64,000 nt of DNA from a virus, in IMG/VR virus record IMGVR_UViG_3300020581_000010, positions 1 through 64,000 of that record, one strand, 5' to 3'. The notes under the pieces were generated by a model. The model was not told where the DNA came from and made no database searches. It saw only the letters and a program-made list of their open reading frames with translations. Positions 2,682-38,383 of the stretch are shown piece after piece. Both the position numbers and the translations under genes were made by a program. Every line of letters begins with the position of its first letter. Position 1 is the stretch's first letter.

Positions 2682-3213
2682 GCCCTTTTCCCCAGAAGTA
2701 CAGGTCGTGATGGTCGCGGTCAATCTCGGCCGCGAATCGCTTGAACGCTCTACCTATCTCAATCGCCTGATTTATCGACAGCGGGCGATAGAAGTCCTGC
2801 CACCCCTCGCGTGCCGCCGTCCCAGGCGATGCGTCCGGGTCGTTCGCCACCGTGCCGTGTTCCGGCCTGCCATTCGCAGCACAAGTGAAGAGGAACAATC
2901 CGTCAGGCTTGAGCAGCTCGACGATCCTCTTGACGGACTGCTCAAGCCGCTTGTCGTGCTCGAATACCTCCGTGCAGATGATCGTGTCGTAGATTTCAAG
3001 CTGGCCCGGCAAGTACTCCTCAATCAGGCAGACTTGATCGACGTTTTCACCTTCCGCTAGGTCGATGCCGGTGTACTCGCAGTTTACGAATAGGCCGCGA
3101 TTCGTGCCGTTCACGTCCATCGACCCGCAGTCGAGTACTCGCTTGCCGACGAATGATCGTGGGAACACGGACTGAACTCGGCAGCAGAAATTCCGCTGTG
3201 CGTCATGAGCCAT
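2641..3213 (-). CDS. Class I SAM-dependent methyltransferase
   Basis: VLDCGSMDVNG, YTGIDL, YDTIICTEVFEH, LLKPDG. Confidence 0.85.
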   Translation of the reverse strand: MAHDAQRNFCCRVQSVFPRSFVGKRVLDCGSMDVNGTNRGLFVNCEYTGIDLAEGENVDQVCLIEEYLPGQLEIYDTIICTEVFEHDKRLEQSVKRIVELLKPDGLFLFTCAANGRPEHGTVANDPDASPGTAAREGWQDFYRPLSINQAIEIGRAFKRFAAEIDRDHHDLYFWGKGLNQSPGSNRYHSG

Positions 3214-3934
3214 AGCTGAACCCTTCAACCTCGAATGGGAAGGTAAATATCTGCGGGCCTTCCCAGAGGAACCCGTTGCGACAGCAGAACGATTCGACGT
3301 GGTGCCACCCCTCCGACCCGAGCCACGTCTCGACGTACATCCGGTCCCGCCACGAATGCCCGGCCCATCGCATGTCTGGTCCGTGCCGCCGACGGTATTC
3401 TTCCGGACTCTGGAGGGAAGCTATCCAGTCACAGCGTGCCATCCAGAAGTTCCCGCAGAAGTGGGGGAAGTCTGGCAATTCCTGCCACGACACCCCGCAC
3501 ATATCGGCCACGGCGAGCAATTCGAGGTTCTTCCGCCAATCGGCGATTACGTGCTTTGCCATCACCCGCCGCCACTGCCGCTTGATAGGACACCCCTGGG
3601 CAGATACTCCCTTGGTGTGGAAGTACAGGACCGCCCTGTCTTGATTTTCTTGAGCGAACTTGTGGAGCTTGCACAGCGTCGGGCCTTCGTACAGGCTCAG
3701 GTCATCGTTTACATAGCGGACGAAGATTGAGACATCGAATGTCCTCGCAAAAGCCGTGAGCCACGTCGCGTCGGCTATCGTGCCGAGCACGCAAGCGGTC
3801 GCTCCCCTCAGCCCGACGTGTGCCATGAGCCGTAACTGCTCCTCGACCACTTGCTGCCAGTTCCCCATGCAGGAGACGTGGTAGAAGACGGAGAGCTGAC
3901 TCGGCGGTTTCAGATCGGCACGCCGCAAGGCCAT
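3203..3934 (-). CDS. Conserved viral protein with LYFHTKG/GNFW motifs (putative glycan-modifying or GT-like enzyme)
   Basis: YEGPTL, VLYFHTKG, HFCGNFWMA; position within glycosylation cluster. Confidence 0.5.
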   Translation of the reverse strand: MALRRADLKPPSQLSVFYHVSCMGNWQQVVEEQLRLMAHVGLRGATACVLGTIADATWLTAFARTFDVSIFVRYVNDDLSLYEGPTLCKLHKFAQENQDRAVLYFHTKGVSAQGCPIKRQWRRVMAKHVIADWRKNLELLAVADMCGVSWQELPDFPHFCGNFWMARCDWIASLQSPEEYRRRHGPDMRWAGHSWRDRMYVETWLGSEGWHHVESFCCRNGFLWEGPQIFTFPFEVEGFSYGS

Positions 3935-4600: not shown

Positions 4601-5905
4601 CTACCTCCTGATTGTCGCCAGACACTCCTCGACCGTCCCCTTCGCCACGATGACATCGGCGTCGGTCGCCTGCCTCAGCATATCGGCAGTCACGCCATGA
4701 TGCCACACCACCGCGATGCCGTTGGCTATCCTCTCGCACTCCATTTGTAGCGTCTTGACGATTGTTCCGAGCTGGCCGATGTCTCTGCCGTTCGCTTCCC
4801 ACTCGCGGAGCCCGTTGTCGAGGTCCGTCACCGGGTCTCTCCAGTACCCGGTGTGCCACCCGTAGGAGCGTAGCTGTGAGGCTGTCGCACGGCCGGTTTC
4901 TAAGAGGACGATGAACCTCTTCGGGGCAGGAATCATCGGCCGCTTTATGCTGGCCTGAATCTGCTCACGTGCCTCCTTGATCGTCGGTGCCATGATGAGG
5001 ACCACCGGACCAGCCCAGAATCGCTTGACAAGTTCCACGGTGACTTGTGGGTGCCAGATTCCAAGGTAGACGTTCTCCTGCGAGACGCACTCCCATTGCA
5101 GGTCGTGCAGCCATCGCACGAAGGCGTTCAGGTCCGGCTTGTCCTCCTTGAAGACTGTCAAGAGCCCGTTGTCGATATCGGACGTTGGGTTCCGGTCGTA
5201 CCCGGTGTGGATGCCGGATTCGCGGAGTGCGGCGACAACTTCCTTTGGGCAGTCGAGCACGAAGACGTGTTCCTCACCCTTCGGGCTCTTCCAGAACTTC
5301 GTGGGATTCACCCTGCCGTTGATGTCGCTCTGGGACTTTACTTGCCCGAACAGGAACGGGTCCGGGGCGTAGACGTTATAGCCAGGTTGCAGTGGACCCA
5401 TGATATGGTCGCAGTGGGTCTGGCTTGAGGGGGCACGCCAGATTGAGTACAGGTCTCGCATGAACCGCCCGCGTATGGCGTAGGCGTGCGTCCGCTGACA
5501 GTTCATGCACCTGACAACCCCGTCGCTCACCTTGCGTGGGCCCTGGATATGCTGACCTCCGAGCATGAGCTGCTCCCAATCCGACGGCACGGCAGCGAAG
5601 AATCGCTCGCAGTCTTCAAGGAAAGTTGACATCACCGTAGCATCGTCTTCGAGGACCAGCAGCGACTTCACGTCGTCTAGGATGGCGGATTGGAGGATGG
5701 TGACGTGGGACTGGAGGCACCCGTATACGGCGTCGGTCGATTGCCACCCACGAGGAGTCGGCACGATCTTCCCATCGACGGCAGGGAATATCTCGGGATC
5801 ACGGAATGGCCAGCCCTTGGCGAGCACGTCAGTGCGGAACGCGGCAAGGCGGTCAGGCCGACGCCGCAGGTTGATGAGGCAAACACGGTCGAATAGGTCT
5901 CTCAT
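4601..5905 (-). CDS. Glycosyltransferase family 25 with duplicated C-terminal domain
   Basis: INLRRRPDRL, GCLQSH, LVLEDDA, LMLGG, THAYAI. Confidence 0.85.
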   Translation of the reverse strand: MRDLFDRVCLINLRRRPDRLAAFRTDVLAKGWPFRDPEIFPAVDGKIVPTPRGWQSTDAVYGCLQSHVTILQSAILDDVKSLLVLEDDATVMSTFLEDCERFFAAVPSDWEQLMLGGQHIQGPRKVSDGVVRCMNCQRTHAYAIRGRFMRDLYSIWRAPSSQTHCDHIMGPLQPGYNVYAPDPFLFGQVKSQSDINGRVNPTKFWKSPKGEEHVFVLDCPKEVVAALRESGIHTGYDRNPTSDIDNGLLTVFKEDKPDLNAFVRWLHDLQWECVSQENVYLGIWHPQVTVELVKRFWAGPVVLIMAPTIKEAREQIQASIKRPMIPAPKRFIVLLETGRATASQLRSYGWHTGYWRDPVTDLDNGLREWEANGRDIGQLGTIVKTLQMECERIANGIAVVWHHGVTADMLRQATDADVIVAKGTVEECLATIRR

Positions 5906-6234
5906 TCTTTCCATTTGCCTAACGGACACTTCTGCTCTGCCCATCCGGCCTTGACATACATGCCGCACCCGCATTCCTTGCACGACAGGCGTTGCTGATC
6001 GAATCGGTCACACCCTTTGCAGATCGTGAGCCGCTGTTGCCTCATTTCTTCCGAGACTAGCTTCATGCCGCTGGTGACGTGTTGCCAAGTAGCTTTGCCA
6101 AGATTAATCGCCTTCTGGAATAGGCCGGGCTCTGGCCTATTTCCGATTGCATCCCAGTGCTTTCGGAAGCCCGGGTTATTGCGGTATCGGTCGCAGAAAA
6201 AGCAGTCAGGTTTATCGCAAAGACATGGTCTCAT
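5902..6234 (-). CDS. Small Cys-rich zinc-binding protein (DUF6171-like)
   Basis: RLTICKGC...CKECGC..KAGW...CPLGKW. Confidence 0.65.
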   Translation of the reverse strand: MRPCLCDKPDCFFCDRYRNNPGFRKHWDAIGNRPEPGLFQKAINLGKATWQHVTSGMKLVSEEMRQQRLTICKGCDRFDQQRLSCKECGCGMYVKAGWAEQKCPLGKWKE

Positions 6235-16374: not shown

Positions 16375-16707
16375 CTACTGAGAATTGACCTTGACCGCCC
16401 ACGGCCCGGAAGTGACGTGCCCCGAGTCGTCCATGAACTCCTCGCGGACCACGGCGACGGGGCGTCCCCTGTGGTCGGTCCAACGCCCCTCGCGGACGAA
16501 CTTCACCCCACCGTCAGCGTTGCCGAGTTCCGTGGTGGCTGACTTGGCACGCACTTCAGCGTCTGGGACAGTGCCGTCAAATTTGTCGTCGGCGACAATT
16601 TTGGCTGGCTCTTTCAGTGCCGCGAATGTATCGTCCGTCTGCTTGGTCCAGTCGGCGTTCTCGTCTGTAGCGTCAGGCGAAGGGAACTCACTTGTGGAAC
16701 TGCTCAT
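16375..16707 (-). CDS. Small acidic protein overlapping ART-domain gene (candidate immunity/partner)
   Basis: ATG 16707 lies inside last codons of upstream gene; MSSSTSEFPSPDATDENADWTKQ. Confidence 0.55.
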   Translation of the reverse strand: MSSSTSEFPSPDATDENADWTKQTDDTFAALKEPAKIVADDKFDGTVPDAEVRAKSATTELGNADGGVKFVREGRWTDHRGRPVAVVREEFMDDSGHVTSGPWAVKVNSQ

Positions 16708-19700
16708 AGGTCGGCCCTCCACTCTGTGATCCGGCAAAAGTGTTCGTGGCGAGATCAATCTTCGGTGCGATGTGAGTCCACGCTGCCGTGTTGCACTTGA
16801 TTTTTCCGCCGAGTACGACGCACTCGGCTTCGGTCAGGCACCCTGCCCCTGTTAAGGCTGTTGAGAACACTCTTTCGATTGGAACCCGCACGGCGATCAT
16901 CATGCAGTTTTTCTTGGAGTTGTTCCTTGAACTGTCCGCGAAATAATGGGCCGTGTCGAAACTCGTGCTGAATGACGACAGCGGTTGCAACGCTGTCTCA
17001 GCACCATCTTGCGATGTCCACTTCTCCTCAATCTTTCCGCCCTCAAGCTTCATGCCGCGATATAGGACTAGTTCCTTGATGCCTGCCTTCTTGAAAAACT
17101 CCTGCGTGTTCTCGTAAGTCGCTTCGAGATAAGCGTGGATGATGCCGCTGTACTTCTCACGCATCTCTTCCGTCTTGTCTTGCAACGCGATTTCCTTTTT
17201 GCTGCCGCTCGGCCCGACGTAATTGAAACTGTCCTTGACGTTGAAAAATTCCTTGGCTCCGCCTTGAATAGCACGCGACAAGGCATTGTGATCGTTGGAC
17301 GATTCCGCCCAGTTGTTGACGAGTACGGCGACGGCACCTTTGAGAGCGTCTTCTTCGTCTACCACGTCTTCCCAATGCTCCTCGTTGTACTCTTCGACAA
17401 GGGCTTCCGCTTCGGCCTCTACCGGAGTGCCAGCGTACTTTTTGCTGAGGATTTCAGCGATCTGCTGCGTCAGATTTGCTTTAGCGTGTGCTCTCATCCC
17501 ATGCGTTGCTTCAATGTTGCCCTTCGCGTCCACGGTGGATTCGTGGTCCCCTTCGTCTCTGGCGAATTTCTTGAACCACTCGCCCATGATCCGGTTCATC
17601 CCACCGTTAGACGATTGCTCTTTCAGTGATTGCAGGAAGGAAGCGTTCGTGTCGGGACTGCCTTCCGCCTTTTTTTTTTCGCTCGCCTCTTCCTTCTCCC
17701 CTCCCTTGCCTTGCTGCCGAGTCCAGATTTTGCCGCCCTTTGGGCCTTCGCCTGAGTAGGTCCAGCCTTCGCCGGGTGGAGTGGGGCCGTGGTACTCTTC
17801 GGCCTTGAGGGTGAAGCCGGCAGCTGATTTGTTGCTGGATTCGGTCCCGCGAAAAGCACCCTTATCTCTTTTCAGAATCCTAGCCGCGACAGAATCCTTG
17901 TCTCTCCAGTCCGAGACCCCGACATCTTTAGCCAGCTTCTCGCGTACACCCTTGGGTTGCGTGTCCAAGAGTTTGACAATCTGTGCATGCACGTCGGCGT
18001 CAGGCTCGCCCTTCTTCATGTCGTACTTGATGAAATCGTGCAGTGCCGTCCAAGTTTCCGGTAGCTTGCGAGGTGCGGGCGGTTGTTCGCGTTGTGGTGA
18101 AGGCTCAGGTTCCTTCTGTGCAATCTTGTTCCCGTGTTTGTCGTAGCCTTCTCCGAACGGATTGAATTCCTCTCGTTTGGTTCCGATGCCGTTTCTGCCC
18201 ATGAACTCGGCAGCAGCTTTACCGATAGACTCGGCGTTTGCCCCGCGTCCGATCATGACTGTCCCGTATGTGTTCTCTTTGTCGGACGGACTCATTTCCC
18301 GATGAACGTCCGACATGTTGCGGACTTCGTTCCACACCTTCAATTCGATTTGCTTCTGGTTAGCGAGAGAAATCAGGAGGCTTTTGAATTCCGTTGGCTT
18401 CATGTCGGGAGCAATCTTTCGCTTGAGTTCGGCATACAGATGGTCCGTCCTTGCCAGACCGTCACCGTGAACGTCTGACGCTGCGAATGCTCCGACTATT
18501 GATCGTCCTAAACTTTCGGCATCGTGAGGCTGGCCCTGTGATTGCTTTTTCTCGCCACTATGTTCGGCGGGTCCGCTTTCCGGCTCTCCCTGATGCTGCC
18601 AAATTTTGCCGCCTTTTGGGCCTTCACCCGTCTGCACCCATCCTTCGCCGGGCGGATTAGGCCCATGATACTCCGCTGCCTTCCACCCCTTCCGCACCTC
18701 GACAGGCTTCCGCGAGTCCATGCTGATCGTGCTGCCGTTCGACAAGTGCAGGATGATCGTGTTCTGCTTGCGTTCCCGCTGCGTCACCTTGGCGAACTCG
18801 CCCGTCTTCGGGTCTTTCACGTCGTTCCCCGCCCGCACGTTGTTGATGTGCGTGGACACCGGCCTCGGCTTCGGAGTCACTGAAGAAGTCTGCGGCAACG
18901 GCGGAACGGCTGTCGGTTCAGGCGTCTTCGCCGTGCCGGGCATGGCTGCTTGCTGCCTCTCGGCGACGGCCTTGTCCCGCTTGGCCTTGAGGGCTTTCTG
19001 CAAGAGGTCGCGGTTCAGGGAAGTGTTCGCCACCTGATTGCTGCCCCACGAGTGCGGGTTGCTCTCCCTCAGCGTCACGCCTAAACGCTTGGCGAACTGG
19101 TTGAACTCGCCGTGGCTCAGTCCTTCCGAACTCTTGACGATGCCGTCGATGTCATGGTCCGTCACCTGAGACGGTCGTGCCGCCAGCTTGTTCCGCAGTG
19201 CGTCCGCATGGTCAATGGCGAATGGCACAGGAGAGTCATTGCGTCTCAGCGGCGCCTTCTGCCAGTCGTGCCGCTGCCTCAAGTGTGGGTACTTGTTGAG
19301 GATCGCGTCGGGGACGGGGATGCCTTCCTTGACCGCCTCATACGCTGAAATTTTCTCGGCCTGAATGTCTATCTCACGCTGAGTCGGGGGATGGTCGTAG
19401 GTCGCTACCCTGACATTGCCACGCATAAGCACGTTAGGCTTGTCGGGGTTGACCGATAGGCCGATCTGATGCGGCGACTTGAGCCACGGTTTCACCGGCG
19501 GCGGGTGCTCCTGCTCGCGGGCCTGCTCCTCAGGTGTGCCGGTGGGAACCTGTCGTTCCCGCTCGTAGAGATTGGATTCGGGGTCTTGCGGTGGCTCTGG
19601 CAACGGCACGCGGGGTCCGCCGCCGCCGTACTTGGCAGCATTCGGGTGCGTGTGCAGCAACGCACGTGGGGCGGGTTCTCTCTCTGGTTCAGGCGTGCCT

Positions 19701-21406
19701 AGCGGCCTGTCCCCTGCTTCGCGTGCCCGCTCGTCTTCCTGACGCTGCCGCTGCTCTTGGAACTTCCTTTCGGCCTCCGGGTCTTCCTTGACGGGATTGA
19801 GTTCCAGCCGACGCCTGCCGAGTTCGTTGTTCACGATGTCGCGTGCGGTCAGGACGACGTTCTGGTCCTTATCGTTGCCGTACCACCCCTCGACGCCTAA
19901 CTCCCTGCCGGCCTTCTGGAGGGCGTCTCCCGACAGTCCCCTGAGAGCGGCTTGCACCTTGACCTGCAACTCGCGGATGGTGCCGCTTATCAGCCCTTCC
20001 TCCGTCCCCTTGTTAGCTGAGAGTATGCCCCGCACGTCCTCCGCGACGCCGGGGACGGTCTTGGTCGGTGCCGCTGGCTTCTCGCCTTGTGGTTGCCCGC
20101 TGTGCCGCCACAGCTTGCCGCCTCGCGGTCCCTCTCCAGCGAATTCCCATCCTTCGCCGGGGGATTCGGGCTGGTGCCTCACTTCGTCCTTGAGTGTGAA
20201 GGACTTCGCCGTGATACCTTCGCTCCCTTGCTCCCACTCCGCGAGCAAGTCCTTGACTAGCTGCTCGGCCAACTCGTTGATCTGTGCGTCCGTCAGTCGG
20301 TCGAATCCCTTGGTAGACATCGACTCGCGGGCACGCTTGTAGACTTCGGCGATCACGATGAACGGGACGGCCGTCAGTGCAGTTTGACCAGGCACCCATA
20401 CGGGCACGCCGAACGCTGCACCTACTCCGGTCACTCCCCACGACAGGATGTTAGCCGCCCCGAAGATTCCGAGAGCTTGGCGACGACCATAACGAGCCTC
20501 CAGCCTCTTGAACATGCCAGCCGATACTGACCGCATCTTGCGTCCTGCCGCACCGGCCGCACGCATGGTCTTCTTGCCGCCCTCGACTATCTTCGCGGCG
20601 ATGTCGTCCGCGTGGTGCATAGCGTTGCGGATGCGTGGAGAGCGGCGGATAGCTGACGCCATGCTCCACTGGTGCTTGCCGTTGCTCTTGGGTTGTTTGC
20701 CGGGGGACCAGATTTTCCCGCCGCGTGGTCCTTCGCTCACGAGGTGCCAGTTGTCGCCCGGCGGCTTGGGTCCGTGGTACTCGGCAGACTTCGCGGTGAA
20801 GGATTTTGCAGTCTTCCGCTGTCTCTTTACGGCAGTCCACTTGCCCCACTCGTTGTTCCACGCGAGTTGGAACTTACTCCCGTCGTCCGCCATCTCCTTG
20901 TTAGCGACCGCGATGTCTTCGGCAGTGTAGTCCCTGAATTCAGGGTCGTTGAATGTCTGGACATAGGATGCCGAGATGGTGTCACCTACCATCTTGCGGG
21001 CCTGCTCAAAGTATTCACGGTCGCCCATGTCGGGCTTTCCCGTCAGAGGGTTCGTGACCAGCACTGACCGTTCGCCGACGAGACTTCCGAGGTCTCGCAA
21101 GTGCATCGCGTTCCAGCCACCCTTGCCATCGGGAACAAGGCGGAATTTGCTGCCGTCGTCGCGGAGTTTCTGGTTCGCCTCGCGGGCGTCCTTAGCTGTT
21201 GCCATCGGGTTCTTGCGGAAGGATTCGACAGCAGCATTAACCGGATCATCTGCGGGTGGCTTTTTGAGCGTCGGCTCGCCGCCGGGGATAGAATCTGTCC
21301 GTTTCCAAATCTTGCCGCCCTTCGGTCCTTCCCCAGACAATACCCATCCCTCACCAGGCGGGGTCGGCCCGTGATACTCGGCAGCTTTTTCGATAGTTGC
21401 GAGCAC
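16688..21406 (-). CDS. 1572-aa modular head-associated polyprotein with five GP[KR]GGK repeats and C-terminal ADP-ribosyltransferase-like domain
   Basis: Repeats read directly; C-terminal LYRG / SSFSTS / EAE motifs; lies between protease and capsid genes. Confidence 0.8.
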   Translation of the reverse strand: MLATIEKAAEYHGPTPPGEGWVLSGEGPKGGKIWKRTDSIPGGEPTLKKPPADDPVNAAVESFRKNPMATAKDAREANQKLRDDGSKFRLVPDGKGGWNAMHLRDLGSLVGERSVLVTNPLTGKPDMGDREYFEQARKMVGDTISASYVQTFNDPEFRDYTAEDIAVANKEMADDGSKFQLAWNNEWGKWTAVKRQRKTAKSFTAKSAEYHGPKPPGDNWHLVSEGPRGGKIWSPGKQPKSNGKHQWSMASAIRRSPRIRNAMHHADDIAAKIVEGGKKTMRAAGAAGRKMRSVSAGMFKRLEARYGRRQALGIFGAANILSWGVTGVGAAFGVPVWVPGQTALTAVPFIVIAEVYKRARESMSTKGFDRLTDAQINELAEQLVKDLLAEWEQGSEGITAKSFTLKDEVRHQPESPGEGWEFAGEGPRGGKLWRHSGQPQGEKPAAPTKTVPGVAEDVRGILSANKGTEEGLISGTIRELQVKVQAALRGLSGDALQKAGRELGVEGWYGNDKDQNVVLTARDIVNNELGRRRLELNPVKEDPEAERKFQEQRQRQEDERAREAGDRPLGTPEPEREPAPRALLHTHPNAAKYGGGGPRVPLPEPPQDPESNLYERERQVPTGTPEEQAREQEHPPPVKPWLKSPHQIGLSVNPDKPNVLMRGNVRVATYDHPPTQREIDIQAEKISAYEAVKEGIPVPDAILNKYPHLRQRHDWQKAPLRRNDSPVPFAIDHADALRNKLAARPSQVTDHDIDGIVKSSEGLSHGEFNQFAKRLGVTLRESNPHSWGSNQVANTSLNRDLLQKALKAKRDKAVAERQQAAMPGTAKTPEPTAVPPLPQTSSVTPKPRPVSTHINNVRAGNDVKDPKTGEFAKVTQRERKQNTIILHLSNGSTISMDSRKPVEVRKGWKAAEYHGPNPPGEGWVQTGEGPKGGKIWQHQGEPESGPAEHSGEKKQSQGQPHDAESLGRSIVGAFAASDVHGDGLARTDHLYAELKRKIAPDMKPTEFKSLLISLANQKQIELKVWNEVRNMSDVHREMSPSDKENTYGTVMIGRGANAESIGKAAAEFMGRNGIGTKREEFNPFGEGYDKHGNKIAQKEPEPSPQREQPPAPRKLPETWTALHDFIKYDMKKGEPDADVHAQIVKLLDTQPKGVREKLAKDVGVSDWRDKDSVAARILKRDKGAFRGTESSNKSAAGFTLKAEEYHGPTPPGEGWTYSGEGPKGGKIWTRQQGKGGEKEEASEKKKAEGSPDTNASFLQSLKEQSSNGGMNRIMGEWFKKFARDEGDHESTVDAKGNIEATHGMRAHAKANLTQQIAEILSKKYAGTPVEAEAEALVEEYNEEHWEDVVDEEDALKGAVAVLVNNWAESSNDHNALSRAIQGGAKEFFNVKDSFNYVGPSGSKKEIALQDKTEEMREKYSGIIHAYLEATYENTQEFFKKAGIKELVLYRGMKLEGGKIEEKWTSQDGAETALQPLSSFSTSFDTAHYFADSSRNNSKKNCMMIAVRVPIERVFSTALTGAGCLTEAECVVLGGKIKCNTAAWTHIAPKIDLATNTFAGSQSGGPTYEQFHK
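17723..17800 (-). repeat. Polyprotein repeat 5 EEYHGPTPPGEGWTYSGEGPKGGKIW
   Basis: Direct reading. Confidence 0.95.
18599..18676 (-). repeat. Polyprotein repeat 4 AEYHGPNPPGEGWVQTGEGPKGGKIW
   Basis: Direct reading. Confidence 0.95.
20108..20185 (-). repeat. Polyprotein repeat 3 EVRHQPESPGEGWEFAGEGPRGGKLW
   Basis: Direct reading. Confidence 0.9.
20708..20785 (-). repeat. Polyprotein repeat 2 AEYHGPKPPGDNWHLVSEGPRGGKIW
   Basis: Direct reading. Confidence 0.95.
21305..21382 (-). repeat. Polyprotein repeat 1 AEYHGPTPPGEGWVLSGEGPKGGKIW
   Basis: Direct reading. Confidence 0.95.
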
Positions 21407-26652: not shown

Positions 26653-26897
26653 TTGGCTTCGATTTGATCCTTCACGTCTTTGTCGATCATGGTCTTCAAT
26701 CTCTCTTCGTGTTCTTTGTGCCCCTCTTTTTCTTTTTCGGAATACGGCCCGTGAGCCTCATCGTATTCCTTGACCTTGTCGTCGATGAACTTCTTGCAGT
26801 CCTTGCAAAACGCTAAGTGGTCGGCAAATGTCAGCCTCTCTGCGGACGACATTTCTTCCGGCCATCGCAAATTCGATCGGAACTCTTCGCATGTCAT
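26649..26897 (-). CDS. zf-HC2 (ZAS) anti-sigma-like small protein
   Basis: MTCEEF...HLAFCKDC (C..Hx3Cx2C). Confidence 0.65.
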   Translation of the reverse strand: MTCEEFRSNLRWPEEMSSAERLTFADHLAFCKDCKKFIDDKVKEYDEAHGPYSEKEKEGHKEHEERLKTMIDKDVKDQIEAN

Positions 26898-28498
26898 TTT
26901 CCGTTTGCCGTTGCCGACACCCTCCCATTCGCATGGACTTCTTTTGCACGCCCACGCCTCTTGAGAATTTCCAGCACTTCCTCAATTGTCTCGCCATCGG
27001 TCCAAGCCTTCTTGGTGTGGCTTTTCAATCCGAGATCGGCAGGTCCAACTTGTGCCGCTTCCTTGTCACCTTGGCCAAGTGCTGCCGTCATCGGGTCGGA
27101 CGGCACCATTGCCCCACCGCCCGTGCCCGGTTGCTGGCCGGTTCCGCCGATCCATTCCTTGTCCCTGTCCGACGGCTTCAGCCCGACAAGCTGTCTGAAT
27201 TCGCCGACCGTAATTACGCCCGGTTTCGACGCTGCCGCGTTCGCTCGTTCGAGATCGAACTTCTCATCGCTCGGCTTCTTGCCGTGCAAGTGCAGATGAA
27301 CGTCTTCGCTGTACCACGGATGAATCAGACCGACTGTCAACGCACTTGCGAACTTCGCCAACATTGGGTCTAAGCTGCTGTAATGGAAGCTCATGATCGA
27401 AGCGTGGTCGGTCGCAAAGTTGTCGTGGCCAGAAAGGCCGGCAATCGCTTTGTTCAGGCCGAATGCCGCGAGCGTGAATTCTAACAACTGATCCCAAGAT
27501 TTTTCCCAGCCCATTTCTGCCGGGCTGTTCGTGAACGGGGTCAGTTTGCTGAACGGCGGGGCGACGAACGGGATTCCAGAATTCTCTGCCCCACCGTAGA
27601 TGTTGACCAACTGCTCCCTCAGCCTCTCCATGTCCTTCGCCGATGGCTGAAACGCCAAACTGTCGAAACTCAACATAAACCGCTGTTTCAGCCCCTGCTT
27701 CATCTCGTTCGCCCGGCTCAAATCCATCTGCCTCACCACGTCCGTCTGTGCAGCAATCGCAAAGAGGCAGGCATATCCCGTCCACCGGAAGAACGGGTGA
27801 GGGTCTTTGACCATCACGATCTGCTCGGCGGGGACCACCGTCCCGACCCCCTGCTGGACTGGAATCTGTGCGTATGGTCCTGCGGGTAGCCACGGCTGCA
27901 CCAGCCATGCCCCGTTAGGCCACAGGGGGCTGATGGGCTGCGGGATCAACGACGCAGTGGAGAGGACGTAGGCTTCCTGCGGGCGGTCCCATTCGATGTC
28001 CAGTTCCCAAGGCGTCCAGATGGGGGCCATGCCAGTGAGGCACTTCTGCAAGTTTCCCTGTTCAAGGATGTCAGCCAGCGTTTCCTTGGGGTTCGGATGG
28101 CTGAGGAATTCGACCACCTCGTCCTTGGGGTAGACGGGGATTCGCCTGTCGGGTTCTCGCGGGTCCAATTCGTAGAACTCGGCCTCAGCCTGGTAGAAAT
28201 GGCGGTTCAGCGTGTTGATGGCCAAGAACACTTGAGAGAAGTACTGCCGGCTGAGCTGGAACCAATTCTGATCGGCGTAGCCTGGGGCGTTGACCCTCTG
28301 GGCAGACCAGAAGAATCGGTAGGCATCGAACGTGCTGAGGACGTTCTGGCTGCCATAGTCGGCGATGTCCGTGAGCGGCTGGACGCGATTCGGTGGGCCG
28401 GTGTCCCTCCACCGTCGCCACCACGCCGAGCTGTTGCTGGACATGCTCGGAGCTGCGAGCGATTGGGCTTTCTGGTTAGCGGAGCAAGTGTAGGGCAT
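26894..28498 (-). CDS. Portal protein (HK97 family)
   Basis: VFLAIN, LSHPNP, LTG, G.EN.G.P, SPAEM, LAAFG, GVITVGEFRQLVGL. Confidence 0.88.
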   Translation of the reverse strand: MPYTCSANQKAQSLAAPSMSSNSSAWWRRWRDTGPPNRVQPLTDIADYGSQNVLSTFDAYRFFWSAQRVNAPGYADQNWFQLSRQYFSQVFLAINTLNRHFYQAEAEFYELDPREPDRRIPVYPKDEVVEFLSHPNPKETLADILEQGNLQKCLTGMAPIWTPWELDIEWDRPQEAYVLSTASLIPQPISPLWPNGAWLVQPWLPAGPYAQIPVQQGVGTVVPAEQIVMVKDPHPFFRWTGYACLFAIAAQTDVVRQMDLSRANEMKQGLKQRFMLSFDSLAFQPSAKDMERLREQLVNIYGGAENSGIPFVAPPFSKLTPFTNSPAEMGWEKSWDQLLEFTLAAFGLNKAIAGLSGHDNFATDHASIMSFHYSSLDPMLAKFASALTVGLIHPWYSEDVHLHLHGKKPSDEKFDLERANAAASKPGVITVGEFRQLVGLKPSDRDKEWIGGTGQQPGTGGGAMVPSDPMTAALGQGDKEAAQVGPADLGLKSHTKKAWTDGETIEEVLEILKRRGRAKEVHANGRVSATANGK

Positions 28499-36361: not shown

Positions 36362-38383
36362 TCACCCCTTCGGCTTCCGCCACACCCAGCAATCTCCCCT
36401 GACCGCCGCTGGCGTATCCCTGAACGTCCCGTCCACCGCCTCCACCACACCGGGGAACGCTGCCGTGTAGTCGTGCCCCGCAAGGATGCCGCCCGGCTTC
36501 ACCTTCGGAAGCCACGCCTGGATGTCCTGCACGACAGACTGGTAGTCGTGCGATGCGTCGATGAACACGAAGTCCAGGCAGTTGTCGAGGATAGCCCCGG
36601 CAACGTCCGCACTCTTCCCTTCCTTGACCTGCACCAGCTTTGACACCCCGGCCCGGCGTAGGTTCTCGTCGAACGCCTGACGCAATGTCTTGCCCCCGAG
36701 CTTGCTGATGATCTCCCGGTGGACCTGCTCATCCGATCCCTGGAAGTGGTCCACGGCATACAGGAACCAGTGCTGTTTTGGGTACTGCTGCGTGGCCCTG
36801 GCGAGTACGGTGATTCCCTGGCCAAGCAGACTGCCCACCTCGACCAGCGACCCGCCACCGCTGACGGCCAAGTCCCTGACTACCTCGTGGTACAGCTCCC
36901 GCATGGGCTTGGTGCAGTAGCCGAACGGTTCCCAAAAGGGGTCGGGCTTAGCATACGGTTCGACGATTGCCCGTTGTGATTCGGTCAGGTGGTGCTTCTC
37001 GCCTGTCGATTCTAACGGCTCTCGTGATGGTAGCCCGAGATGATTCGGCCTCGACTGCTCTGGAACATTCTGGCTTTTCTTCATCGCTTCAACGGCGGTG
37101 AGTCTTTCCCACACGGTGACACCGCCATTGATAGCCCTTGTCTCGTATTTCTTCGGAACCGGAAACAGCACGTCCGGTATGCTCTCAATCGTGAAATGGT
37201 TCGTGAAAACGGCATTGATGCGGGATTCCTCAGCCGACTTGTGGAAGCATCCGACGCCGTTCCTTGTGAACCACACCGGAGCATCCACCTTCACCCATTC
37301 GGCACGCTCGAAGGACGCTGCGATCCGGTTCGCCGCCGGCCTCAGTGCCTCCGTGGCCTCAGCAATGGCCGCTGTGCCCTTGCTGGCCACTGACGCCGCA
37401 ACGTCCTGCATCGTGTCGAACGTCGCCTCTGCTGGCGGTCCTGCCGCGACTCCGCACCCTTGCGTGAGGGATTCGGCCAAATCCGTAAGTCCCGGAATGT
37501 GAATCCTTTCCGGTTTCAAATCGGACGCTGCGTCCGTTTTGGCCACCCCATTCTTCGCCGTCCGCTCCTTCTCCTCTCGCATCCTCAGAATCGAGTACAT
37601 CTTCTCCCTGAACGTGTCCACCTGAGAGGGGTGCAGTATCTTCGGCTGAGTGATCTCCCCCACCTTGAAGTGGCTCGACCAGTTGTCGAAGTCGGCGAAG
37701 ATGTGGACGTTCGCCGCCCTCATCTGCTGGTGGCAGAAGATGTCCTCGCTGGCCTTCATGATCGTGTGTGCATCGTCTGCCCACATGAACTCGTAGTACG
37801 GCTTCTTGATCAGCGAGAATGCCCGCATGTCGTAGGCTATGCACCCCGGCCCGACGTTCTCCACCTCGACCAGCCCCCTCTCTGCCGCCGCTTCCTCGCG
37901 GGTGTAGCGGGACATCTGGAAGCCGCTGTTCTCGTAGTTGTTCTTGTTGGTGCGGTATCGGAACACCAGCGGGTCTTCCTTCTCTCCCCCGGTGCAGTAG
38001 GGGGAAGCGATCACGATGGGGGGCCTGCCCTTCTGCAAGTTCAGCCAGATTTCCTTGACCGCCTCGTCGAACCACCGCGTGACCGGACCCATGTCGTCGT
38101 CGAGCATCACCAGCACGTCCGCCCCCCGCTGCTGGGCTTCGTCCACGGCGATGTTCCGGGCTGCCGAGTGCGGGACCACGTTGCCGAACACGGCGATGCT
38201 CGTGACCAGTCCCTTGATGCCAGCGAGGCACGGACCACCAGCTAGGGCGATTGCACCCATGCTCTGGACGTGGGCCTGGAAGCCGACCAGCTCTTGGCGG
38301 ACCATGCCGCTAGCCGTGATGATCGCACTAAGGACTTTGAACGGCCTTGGTGGCGTCTCGCTCTGACTCTGTTGCGGCTGCAC
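36362..38383 (-). CDS. GT-A glycosyltransferase fused to class I (Methyltransf_24-like) methyltransferase
   Basis: N: AARN, MLDDD, SEDIF; C: VEVGSLLG, AVDHFQG, DFVFIDASHDY, KPGGILAGHDY. Confidence 0.85.
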   Translation of the reverse strand: MQPQQSQSETPPRPFKVLSAIITASGMVRQELVGFQAHVQSMGAIALAGGPCLAGIKGLVTSIAVFGNVVPHSAARNIAVDEAQQRGADVLVMLDDDMGPVTRWFDEAVKEIWLNLQKGRPPIVIASPYCTGGEKEDPLVFRYRTNKNNYENSGFQMSRYTREEAAAERGLVEVENVGPGCIAYDMRAFSLIKKPYYEFMWADDAHTIMKASEDIFCHQQMRAANVHIFADFDNWSSHFKVGEITQPKILHPSQVDTFREKMYSILRMREEKERTAKNGVAKTDAASDLKPERIHIPGLTDLAESLTQGCGVAAGPPAEATFDTMQDVAASVASKGTAAIAEATEALRPAANRIAASFERAEWVKVDAPVWFTRNGVGCFHKSAEESRINAVFTNHFTIESIPDVLFPVPKKYETRAINGGVTVWERLTAVEAMKKSQNVPEQSRPNHLGLPSREPLESTGEKHHLTESQRAIVEPYAKPDPFWEPFGYCTKPMRELYHEVVRDLAVSGGGSLVEVGSLLGQGITVLARATQQYPKQHWFLYAVDHFQGSDEQVHREIISKLGGKTLRQAFDENLRRAGVSKLVQVKEGKSADVAGAILDNCLDFVFIDASHDYQSVVQDIQAWLPKVKPGGILAGHDYTAAFPGVVEAVDGTFRDTPAAVRGDCWVWRKPKG

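Follow-up and report, generated by a model that had tools for sequence, protein, structure and literature searches.

P0001, a 1572-residue protein encoded in the head module of an uncultured soil phage, contains five copies of a conserved mini-domain, here called the tag, each of which opens a module of otherwise unrelated sequence. The window, meaning the whole stretch of DNA that was analysed, is the first 64 kb of the 75,252-bp IMG/VR viral record IMGVR_UViG_3300020581_000010, for which CheckV estimates a completeness of 68%. The reading to which we lean, with somewhat more confidence than doubt, is that P0001 is a virion-packaged multi-effector polyprotein, a member of the polyvalent class of phage proteins without a MuF domain, which the S78-type prohead protease P0002 would cut into five cargoes, each keeping its tag as a handle. 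Phages carry effector proteins in their heads; to our knowledge, it is not known how multi-domain polyvalent proteins are sorted, cut, and delivered. The layout described here is testable, with a conserved folded tag heading every cassette, a predicted protease motif common to capsid maturation, and relatives with cargo on the protease or the portal protein. An earlier note, made from the sequence alone, had proposed a capsid-packaged precursor of this kind; as a whole this interpretation is partly supported, and the processing into five separately ejected effectors is a step that we infer.

The tag and its five cargo modules

The tag consensus in P0001 is (E)YHGPxPPGxGWxxxGEGP(K/R)GGK(I/L)W (Table 1). 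The five copies end where the earlier note had placed them, its nucleotide positions marking the final base of each ...KIW codon. With one tag copy as query, the whole 75-kb record yields exactly these five matches (E values of 1e-9 to 1e-30) and no others. In the five-copy alignment, 13 of 42 columns are invariant. The third-base identity at conserved residues between copies is 0.32 to 0.67, near the codon-usage expectation, indicating an old repeat that is maintained by protein-level selection and not a recent DNA duplication. The five segments that follow the tags (170 to 480 residues) show no significant mutual similarity in BLASTP comparisons, as the note had observed. The note did not recognize the repeat as a named family, which agrees with the library searches, no model in Pfam, PHROGs, or NCBIfam covering the tag sequence; Pfam holds the LPD families of Iyer et al. 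2017 (PMC5512222), none of which covers it.

The AlphaFold 2 (AF2) model of the tag, predicted from a 43-row alignment, is a three-stranded mini beta-sheet with strands at P0001 residues 1204-1206, 1215-1220, and 1226-1230 and a predicted local distance difference test score (pLDDT) of about 90. The flanks are disordered in the model, and the predicted cut K1201↓A1202 (the arrow marks predicted cuts throughout) falls within the flexible part. Foldseek against the PDB gave no match at E ≤0.001, and the best hit of a wide VIA-align search was a defensin with a Z score of 2.2, results that are uninformative for such a small domain. Two candidate identities were rejected: a self-cleaving element, as the tag has no invariant Ser/Thr/Cys nucleophile, and a WW or KOW domain, as its Trp-Trp spacing, at 13 residues, falls short and no profile matches. 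Co-folding of the capsid protein (16-row alignment) with the tag (43 rows) scored 0.00, which is not evidence either way.

Among the 99 tags counted in P0001 and its relatives, the residue preceding HGP is aromatic in 96, the spacing between tags is always at least 159 residues, and the distance from a tag to the C-terminus is always at least 100 residues, except in P0048, a 98-residue fragment. Over the 40 residues behind the tag, Q, K, P, G, and A are abundant and hydrophobic residues are depleted, suggesting a flexible linker. The cassette that we propose would consist of the three-stranded tag of about 27 residues, a Q/K/P/G-rich linker of 20 to 40 residues, and a cargo domain, and P0001 would hold five such portable cassettes.

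The composition of this linker bears on whether the tag might be a nucleic-acid-binding handle, whose small beta-sheet and basic tail would hold the freed cargo on the packaged DNA, the cargo then exiting with the genome. A head-targeting or DNA-binding role had been raised in the earlier note and is putative. With DNA as a universal partner, 12 positions could stay near-invariant across phages whose portal and capsid families are unrelated, K or R often follows the last tag Trp, and three-stranded sheets with Trp and Lys are a known DNA-binding form, for example in AP2 and the Tn916 integrase N-domain. However, the 40 residues after the tag are only weakly basic (K+R 15.5% versus D+E 12.3%), cargo enters the procapsid before the DNA, which would leave its incorporation unexplained, and the fold searches gave no known DNA-binding fold, which is weak evidence for such a small domain. 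We regard a DNA handle as unlikely.

The modules behind the tags are found again in other tagged proteins. M1 matches P0027 at residues 593-722, right behind the P0027 tag. M2, the module most widely common to other tagged proteins, matches eight of them, nearly always in the stretch behind a tag, the exception being P0019. The end of M4 matches P0017 and P0052, and M5 matches residues 697-899 of P0014, behind the second P0014 tag, with 36% identity and an E value of 1e-35. The E values of these BLASTP matches to post-tag regions range from 1e-10 to 1e-35, and the recurrence of modules behind tags elsewhere indicates that the tag-linker-cargo unit is reused in different proteins and orders.

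The proposed cargoes are a DDGSKF-repeat module (M1), a membrane hairpin (M2), two modules without an assigned identity (M3 and M4), and an R-S-E ADP-ribosyltransferase (ART; M5). The hydrophobic hairpin of M2 is likely a membrane-inserting cargo. M5 is predicted to be R-S-E ADP-ribosyltransferase-like, the motifs occurring in order and with the usual spacing and all being kept in P0014; its AF2 model (pLDDT 37.6 from a 2-row alignment) is unusable. No identity was assigned to M1, M3, or M4, and P0001 as a whole has no phmmer match in the PDB. M1 holds two DDGSKF half-motifs, at about positions 21160 and 20887 of the window.

The upstream protease and the predicted cut sites

As the earlier note had placed it, the polyprotein gene lies between the protease gene and the HK97-type capsid gene; two small open reading frames (ORFs) intervene before the latter. 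Its GTG start is 1 nt past the P0002 stop, and it is translationally coupled to the protease gene. The nearest ESM Atlas neighbours of P0002 residues 68-261 are Peptidase_S78 clusters, both by features (0.95) and by structure (TM 0.56-0.60). P0002 matches 37 ORFs directly upstream of related capsid genes, and its homologue at locus L046 (BLAST E value of 9e-23) reaches 28 bits with PF04586 (Peptidase_S78), above the cut-off of 21. In a 38-sequence protease alignment, His131 is conserved in 37 sequences and Ser189 and Glu222 in all 38; Ser189 aligns with Ser114 of HK97 gp4, and His131 lies one column off gp4 His65. On this evidence P0002, whose His131/Ser189 pair is intact, is identified as a prohead protease of the HK97 (S78) family; the note had called it a prohead protease.

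The predicted cut sites follow a short motif, hydrophobic-T-x-K, which is found 15 times in the 3508 residues of the head-module ORFs and, in all other long ORFs together, 15 times in 28,846 residues, making it 8-fold enriched in the head module. The Lys contexts before the tags read as the note had quoted them (IEK↓AA, TAKSFTAK↓SA, TAKSFTLK↓D, GWK↓AA, and FTLK↓AE), and the motif that they fit, present ahead of tags 2, 3, and 5, is also found at the predicted capsid maturation site. There, GFTQK198↓V199 of P0005 lies about six residues from the equivalent of the HK97 capsid cleavage site between K103 and S104 (with TIGR01554 model position 111 taken as residue 211), and T-Q-K-V-G-G is kept among capsid relatives. 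In P0002 the motif stands at the N-terminus of the protease (VTAK46↓S) and at the boundary between protease and cargo (ITQK278↓S). Its similarity to P0004, a protein of a sister contig, stops at this boundary, at GIT(Q/R)K↓S, beyond which P0004 is a 2H phosphoesterase (PF13563) and P0002 continues with unrelated sequence. This C-terminal extension of 264 residues has no family match; it holds further motif sites at K445 and K528. In the sister proteins P0003 and P0009, a Lys is likewise found five residues ahead of the tag His.

We propose that, within the procapsid, the S78 protease would cut after the Lys of hydrophobic-T-x-K (and K↓AAEY) sites, in the flexible residues ahead of each tag, and that cleavage at the same motif would both mature the capsid protein and separate the protease from its own C-terminal cargo. 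The products would be five separate cargo proteins with the tag kept at each new N-terminus, where it would most likely act as a handle, either holding or positioning the released cargo inside the head or guiding it out during ejection. Judged from the motif, cleavage of P0001 into tagged cargoes is likely.

Several points weigh against this reading. At tags 1 and 4 the junction reads K↓AAEY (IEK↓A and GWK↓A), and the motif's Thr is missing. A Lys at the pre-tag position is present in 10 of the 99 tags, only in P0001 and two close relatives; elsewhere the position is V, A, or F within conserved FGMVGDEW, LDAQGNF, or FDEEY stretches. This limited occurrence suggests that the pre-tag Lys is a lineage adaptation and not part of the tag, and cutting right at the tag may be a local feature. 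P0002 has no direct match in Pfam (even at E ≤10), PHROGs, NCBIfam, or, by phmmer, the PDB. M5 reaches 22 bits with the DRAT profile, below the cut-off of 25, its ART membership resting on the motifs and this match. The tag is near-invariant across phages with different portal and capsid families, which disfavours a fast-evolving head protein as its partner. Finally, Iyer et al. 2017 (PMC5512222) proposed an embedded metallopeptidase for the processing of polyvalent proteins.

Some of these points would also suit a P0001 that stays uncut, as one long internal head or ejection protein in which the tags would be attachment joints or structural spacers that recur along the chain. The full motif is missing at tags 1 and 4, 53 of the 72 tagged proteins carry a single tag, and the cleavage of P0001 is something that we infer. 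The 8-fold enrichment argues otherwise, as does the presence of the motif both at the predicted capsid maturation site and at the protease/cargo boundary. The same cassettes, moreover, occur elsewhere as separate genes or in other orders, and a membrane hairpin and a presumably cytoplasmic ART have incompatible destinations. An uncut protein therefore seems improbable to us.

The predicted cut sites lie 3 to 5 residues ahead of the folded tag, which also fits a tag that is mainly a protease docking or processing element, presenting the flexible segment to the S78-type protease and having no role after cleavage; the precursor may then ride into the procapsid on the protease. The coupling of the polyprotein gene to the protease gene and the physical fusion of cargo to the protease in relatives are in line with docking, and S78/Mu-type proteases are among the more conserved head components, fitting a conserved tag. 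On the other hand, the P0062 and P0026 genes begin directly with the tag, so that no processing is needed there, the pre-tag residues vary by subfamily, and the prohead proteases of HK97, T4, and SPN3US are established to read short linear motifs without docking domains (PMC10052503). We give a mainly docking role a small chance.

Tagged relatives and related head modules

A tag profile built from the five P0001 copies was run against 1.84 billion protein cluster representatives and found 78 proteins at E ≤1e-3, four of which are low-complexity false matches and about 73 real. The 99 tags counted are spread over 72 proteins, with P0001 having the most and its relatives up to four copies. The Pfam tally over 51 tagged members is led by Phage_Mu_F (17), Portal_Mu (6), PI3_PI4_kinase (5), and ART-PolyVal (4), and further partners are Zeta_toxin, ADPrib_exo_Tox, InPase, RelA_SpoT, Topoisom_I, Amino_oxidase, inteins, and parts of SNF2-like helicases. 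The architectures include tag-MuF-tag-tag-ART (P0010), Portal_Mu-tag-tag-topoisomerase I (P0011), three tags followed by a zeta toxin (P0012), and MuF-tag-ART-PolyVal-membrane module (P0053). At L006 and L008, the loci with readable DNA, the tagged gene directly follows the portal gene. The profile test proposed in the earlier note gave matches beside portal and MuF genes with variable cargo, whereas an upstream K-S/A is not a family-wide feature, given the Lys count above.

By domain repertoire and context, the tagged proteins belong with the phage-type polyvalent virion effectors that Iyer et al. 2017 (PMC5512222) described, and they resemble the MuF toxins (PMC5576092). The domains of the tagged relatives and the portal context likewise place P0001 among virion-delivered effector proteins, in support of the effector polyprotein claim of the note. 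The tag profile flags a set of unannotated proteins of uncultured soil phages as likely virion cargo. Amino_oxidase is found in three tagged proteins and is an unusual candidate virion cargo; flavin amine oxidase genes also come after the MuF/tag genes in two Mu-like head modules (Table 1).

A tag accompanies each cassette even where a portal or MuF domain is part of the fusion, suggesting that the tag most likely works for every cargo individually once that cargo is released. Many tags of the relatives are in proteins that are already anchored by portal or MuF, and a role in head entry alone does not explain the tag. Beyond P0001, we tentatively suggest, as a generalization that is more doubtful than our reading of P0001 itself, that the HGPxPPGxGW..GPxGGKxW mini-domain acts as a portable signal independent of its cargo, by which any attached protein is loaded into or retained in HK97-type heads and led out at infection, and that the KHPRxxDGKFG motif described below is a second such signal. 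If this were true, the portable signal would be a general addressing system for phage-delivered proteins and, with cutting by the head protease, would allow several effectors to be fired from one gene. If the tag proves to serve in loading or ejection, this would account for the retention of freed cargoes in the head, and the tag would be a short handle with which proteins of choice could be brought into phage capsids in laboratory phage-host systems.

The tag recurs in about 70 other proteins of uncultured phages. It had no tblastn match in 50,697 deposited phage records. A strict DNA pattern, under which 57 of the 99 tags fall, had 0 matches in 185,579 species genomes, and the same pattern matched 1 viral contig and 12 metagenome contigs, mostly short and of soil type. 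A search of viral contigs with the five-copy tag alignment matched 33 patterns, none of which was confirmed, the same search with P0004 gave none, and an ESM Atlas query with the tag gave no usable match. The motif was not found in the searched parts of Iyer et al. 2017 (PMC5512222) or Jamet et al. 2017 (PMC5576092).

These relatives also bear on the idea that P0001 is not a virion protein but a polymorphic toxin that would be secreted or released on lysis and whose gene is in the head module by chance. Jamet et al. 2017 (PMC5576092) treat MuF-toxin proteins as polymorphic toxins of temperate phages, and the C-terminal ART of P0001 is toxin-like, the small ORF behind it being a candidate immunity gene. 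Yet P0001 opens with a tag at residue 8 and not with a signal peptide, its gene is coupled to the protease gene and sited between the protease and capsid genes, in its relatives the same tags are joined to parts of the virion, namely portal and MuF domains, and the absence of the strict pattern from species genomes gives no sign of prophage carriage. We consider a nonvirion toxin very improbable.

The sister contig (75,991 bp) encodes P0003, P0004, and P0083. In P0003, the sister polyprotein, a stretch of about 60 residues, RKHGE(I/T)EG(R/G)AKSP...YHWVDGKRVATAAEV, occurs twice as an internal duplication; the protein also has a ParB-like DGHHHW motif and a C-terminal HELGH metallopeptidase motif.

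Among 63 viral loci with related capsid genes, none carries the HGP tag. In many of these tagless relatives, the protease domain is the N-terminus of an ORF of 930 to 1956 residues that ends just before the capsid gene, and these ORFs look like protease-cargo fusion polyproteins, although a Pfam search of three of them found nothing in the extensions. The cargo extensions of three fusions (L027, L043, and L051) share a conserved G(H/E)PLT(E/K)KQRGxFG. In the more distant fusions (capsid identity 28-42%), hydrophobic-T-x-K is enriched about 4-fold over other ORFs of the same loci, unevenly so: 4 of 13 such proteins are without the motif, and their capsid ORFs are without the T-x-K-x-G-G site. 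This unevenness suggests that the protease specificity may be clade-limited.

A second repeated motif, (W/F)(D/E)ExKHPRxxDG(K/R/Q)FG, occurs once or twice per protein in protease-cargo proteins and in a portal-extension protein (L061). It has a K or R a few residues upstream and never co-occurs with the HGP tag. By tblastn, it is also found in or near the portal genes of the cultured Pseudomonas phage Orimi01 and Xanthomonas phage PhiXhv-5, and a literature search on this motif found nothing relevant.

The remaining genes of the head module and the coordinates of all features are given in Table 1, the gene order being portal, protease, polyprotein, two small ORFs, and capsid. P0005 matches Phage_capsid and TIGR01554 with its residues 211-506. 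The very acidic P0006, for which no family match was found, is possibly scaffold-like. The 110-residue ORF has no family match either and could encode a further head protein or else a protein that partners the ART module or confers immunity to it. Elsewhere in the window, three genes with weak matches to TET-associated glycosyltransferase (TAGT) and DUF4459, together with methyltransferase and GT25 domains, may be involved in DNA hypermodification or glycosylation.

Table 1. Features of the window and of related loci (window positions unless a locus is named; arrows mark predicted cuts)
Feature	Position	Strand	Remarks
P0001 polyprotein, 1572 aa	16688..21406	-	open frame, GTG 21406 to TGA 16688; five proposed tag-linker-cargo modules: M1 aa 8-206, M2 207-406, M3 407-909, M4 910-1201, M5 1202-1572
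Tag copy 1, aa 10-36	21299..21379	-	after IEK7↓A8
Tag copy 2, aa 209-235	20702..20782	-	after TAK201↓S and FTAK206↓S
Tag copy 3, aa 409-435	20102..20182	-	most divergent (VRHQP); after ITAK401↓S and FTLK406↓D
Tag copy 4, aa 912-938	18593..18673	-	after GWK909↓A
Tag copy 5, aa 1204-1230	17717..17797	-	after FTLK1201↓A
Hydrophobic hairpin of M2, aa ~320-355	20339..20449	-	
ADP-ribosyltransferase-like domain of M5, aa ~1352-1538	16793..17353	-	Y-R1450-G, S-T-S 1480-1482, E1526-A-E1528
P0002 protease, 542 aa	21408..23036	-	predicted pro-peptide 1-46, S78 prohead protease domain 47-278, then 264-aa putative cargo
C-terminal extension of P0002, 264 aa	21411-22202	-	
P0005 major capsid protein, HK97 fold, 516 aa	14186..15736	-	long N-terminal delta region; predicted maturation site GFTQK198↓V199
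P0006, 170 aa	15784..16296	-	very acidic; ETAK↓S close to the C-terminus; between polyprotein and capsid gene
ORF, 110 aa	16375..16707	-	ATG 16707 with GGAGGG upstream; overlaps the polyprotein stop; contains VRAK↓S
Portal protein (PF04860)	26894..28498	-	
Genes with weak TAGT and DUF4459 matches, methyltransferase and GT25 domains	36362-38383; 3203-3934; 4601-5983	-	
Protease-fusion ORFs	L051:3894-9761; L039:4559-9790; L027:5909-9769; L045:6253-9771; L043:6377-9646; L033:6772-9732		
KHPR-motif carriers	L046:5289-8291; L054:1725-5003; L055:4352-7198; L061:4708-8127; L077; L080		
Flavin amine oxidase gene	L006:3538-5469	-	after MuF/tag genes
Flavin amine oxidase gene	L008:8960-10321	+	after MuF/tag genes

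Comparison with known phage effector and cargo systems

The closest known systems are the polyvalent proteins described by Iyer et al. 2017 (PMC5512222). As in those proteins, several unrelated effector-type domains are joined in one large polypeptide encoded beside portal and head genes, and packaging into the head and delivery with the DNA are proposed in both cases. The tagged relatives carry MuF, portal fusions, ART-PolyVal, 2H, InPase, RelA/SpoT, ParB-like, and metallopeptidase domains, as polyvalent proteins do. In P0001 itself, the sub-threshold DRAT match is the only sign of a polyvalent hallmark domain, and the sister proteins show HExxH, the ParB-like DGHHHW, and 2H. P0001 differs in that processing is predicted to occur through the S78 protease at Lys sites instead of an embedded metallopeptidase, in that no MuF, metallopeptidase, or LPD domain was detected in it, and in the repeated mini-domain opening each module, which was not found in the searched parts of that paper. 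Phage_Mu_F (PF04233) was not found in P0001 at E ≤0.01 or in P0001 segments at E ≤1.

The MuF toxins (PMC5576092) and the related SPP1 gp7 and Mu gpF share with P0001 the position in the head module and a variable C-terminal toxin (ART, RelA/SpoT-like, and others), and Phage_Mu_F is present in 17 of the 51 tagged relatives. Unlike them, P0001 has no detected MuF domain and has five modules instead of one toxin. The MuF toxins are described from temperate prophages, whereas the tag carriers are uncultured soil phages and the strict pattern has no match in species genomes.

The internal proteins and Alt of T4 and the ejection proteins of phiKZ and SPN3US (PMC10052503) are head cargo, including an ADP-ribosyltransferase; the head protease processes them at a short motif that the capsid protein also has, and they are then ejected into the host, all of which is predicted for P0001. 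The systems differ in three respects. In T4 and SPN3US, the N-terminal targeting propeptide is removed, whereas the tag of P0001 follows the predicted cut and would stay on the cargo. Their protease is of the gp21 type and recognizes L/I-x-E and A/S/G-x-E motifs, and here it is of the S78 type with a predicted cut after Lys. Their cargoes are separate genes, in contrast to the one five-module precursor found here.

By analogy only, the tag resembles the cargo-loading peptides of encapsulins, which are likewise short, conserved, and portable elements joined by a linker to unrelated cargo inside an HK97-fold shell. The encapsulin peptide is an unfolded C- or N-terminal motif with a mapped pocket on the shell, whereas the tag is predicted to be a folded mini-sheet.

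Compared with HK97 gp4, residues 47-278 of P0002 have the His/Ser pair, are encoded upstream of the capsid gene, and are predicted to cut after Lys at the boundary between the delta region and the mature capsid protein. P0002 differs by its 46-residue N-terminal extension and 264 C-terminal residues, with relatives having up to about 1700 extra residues.

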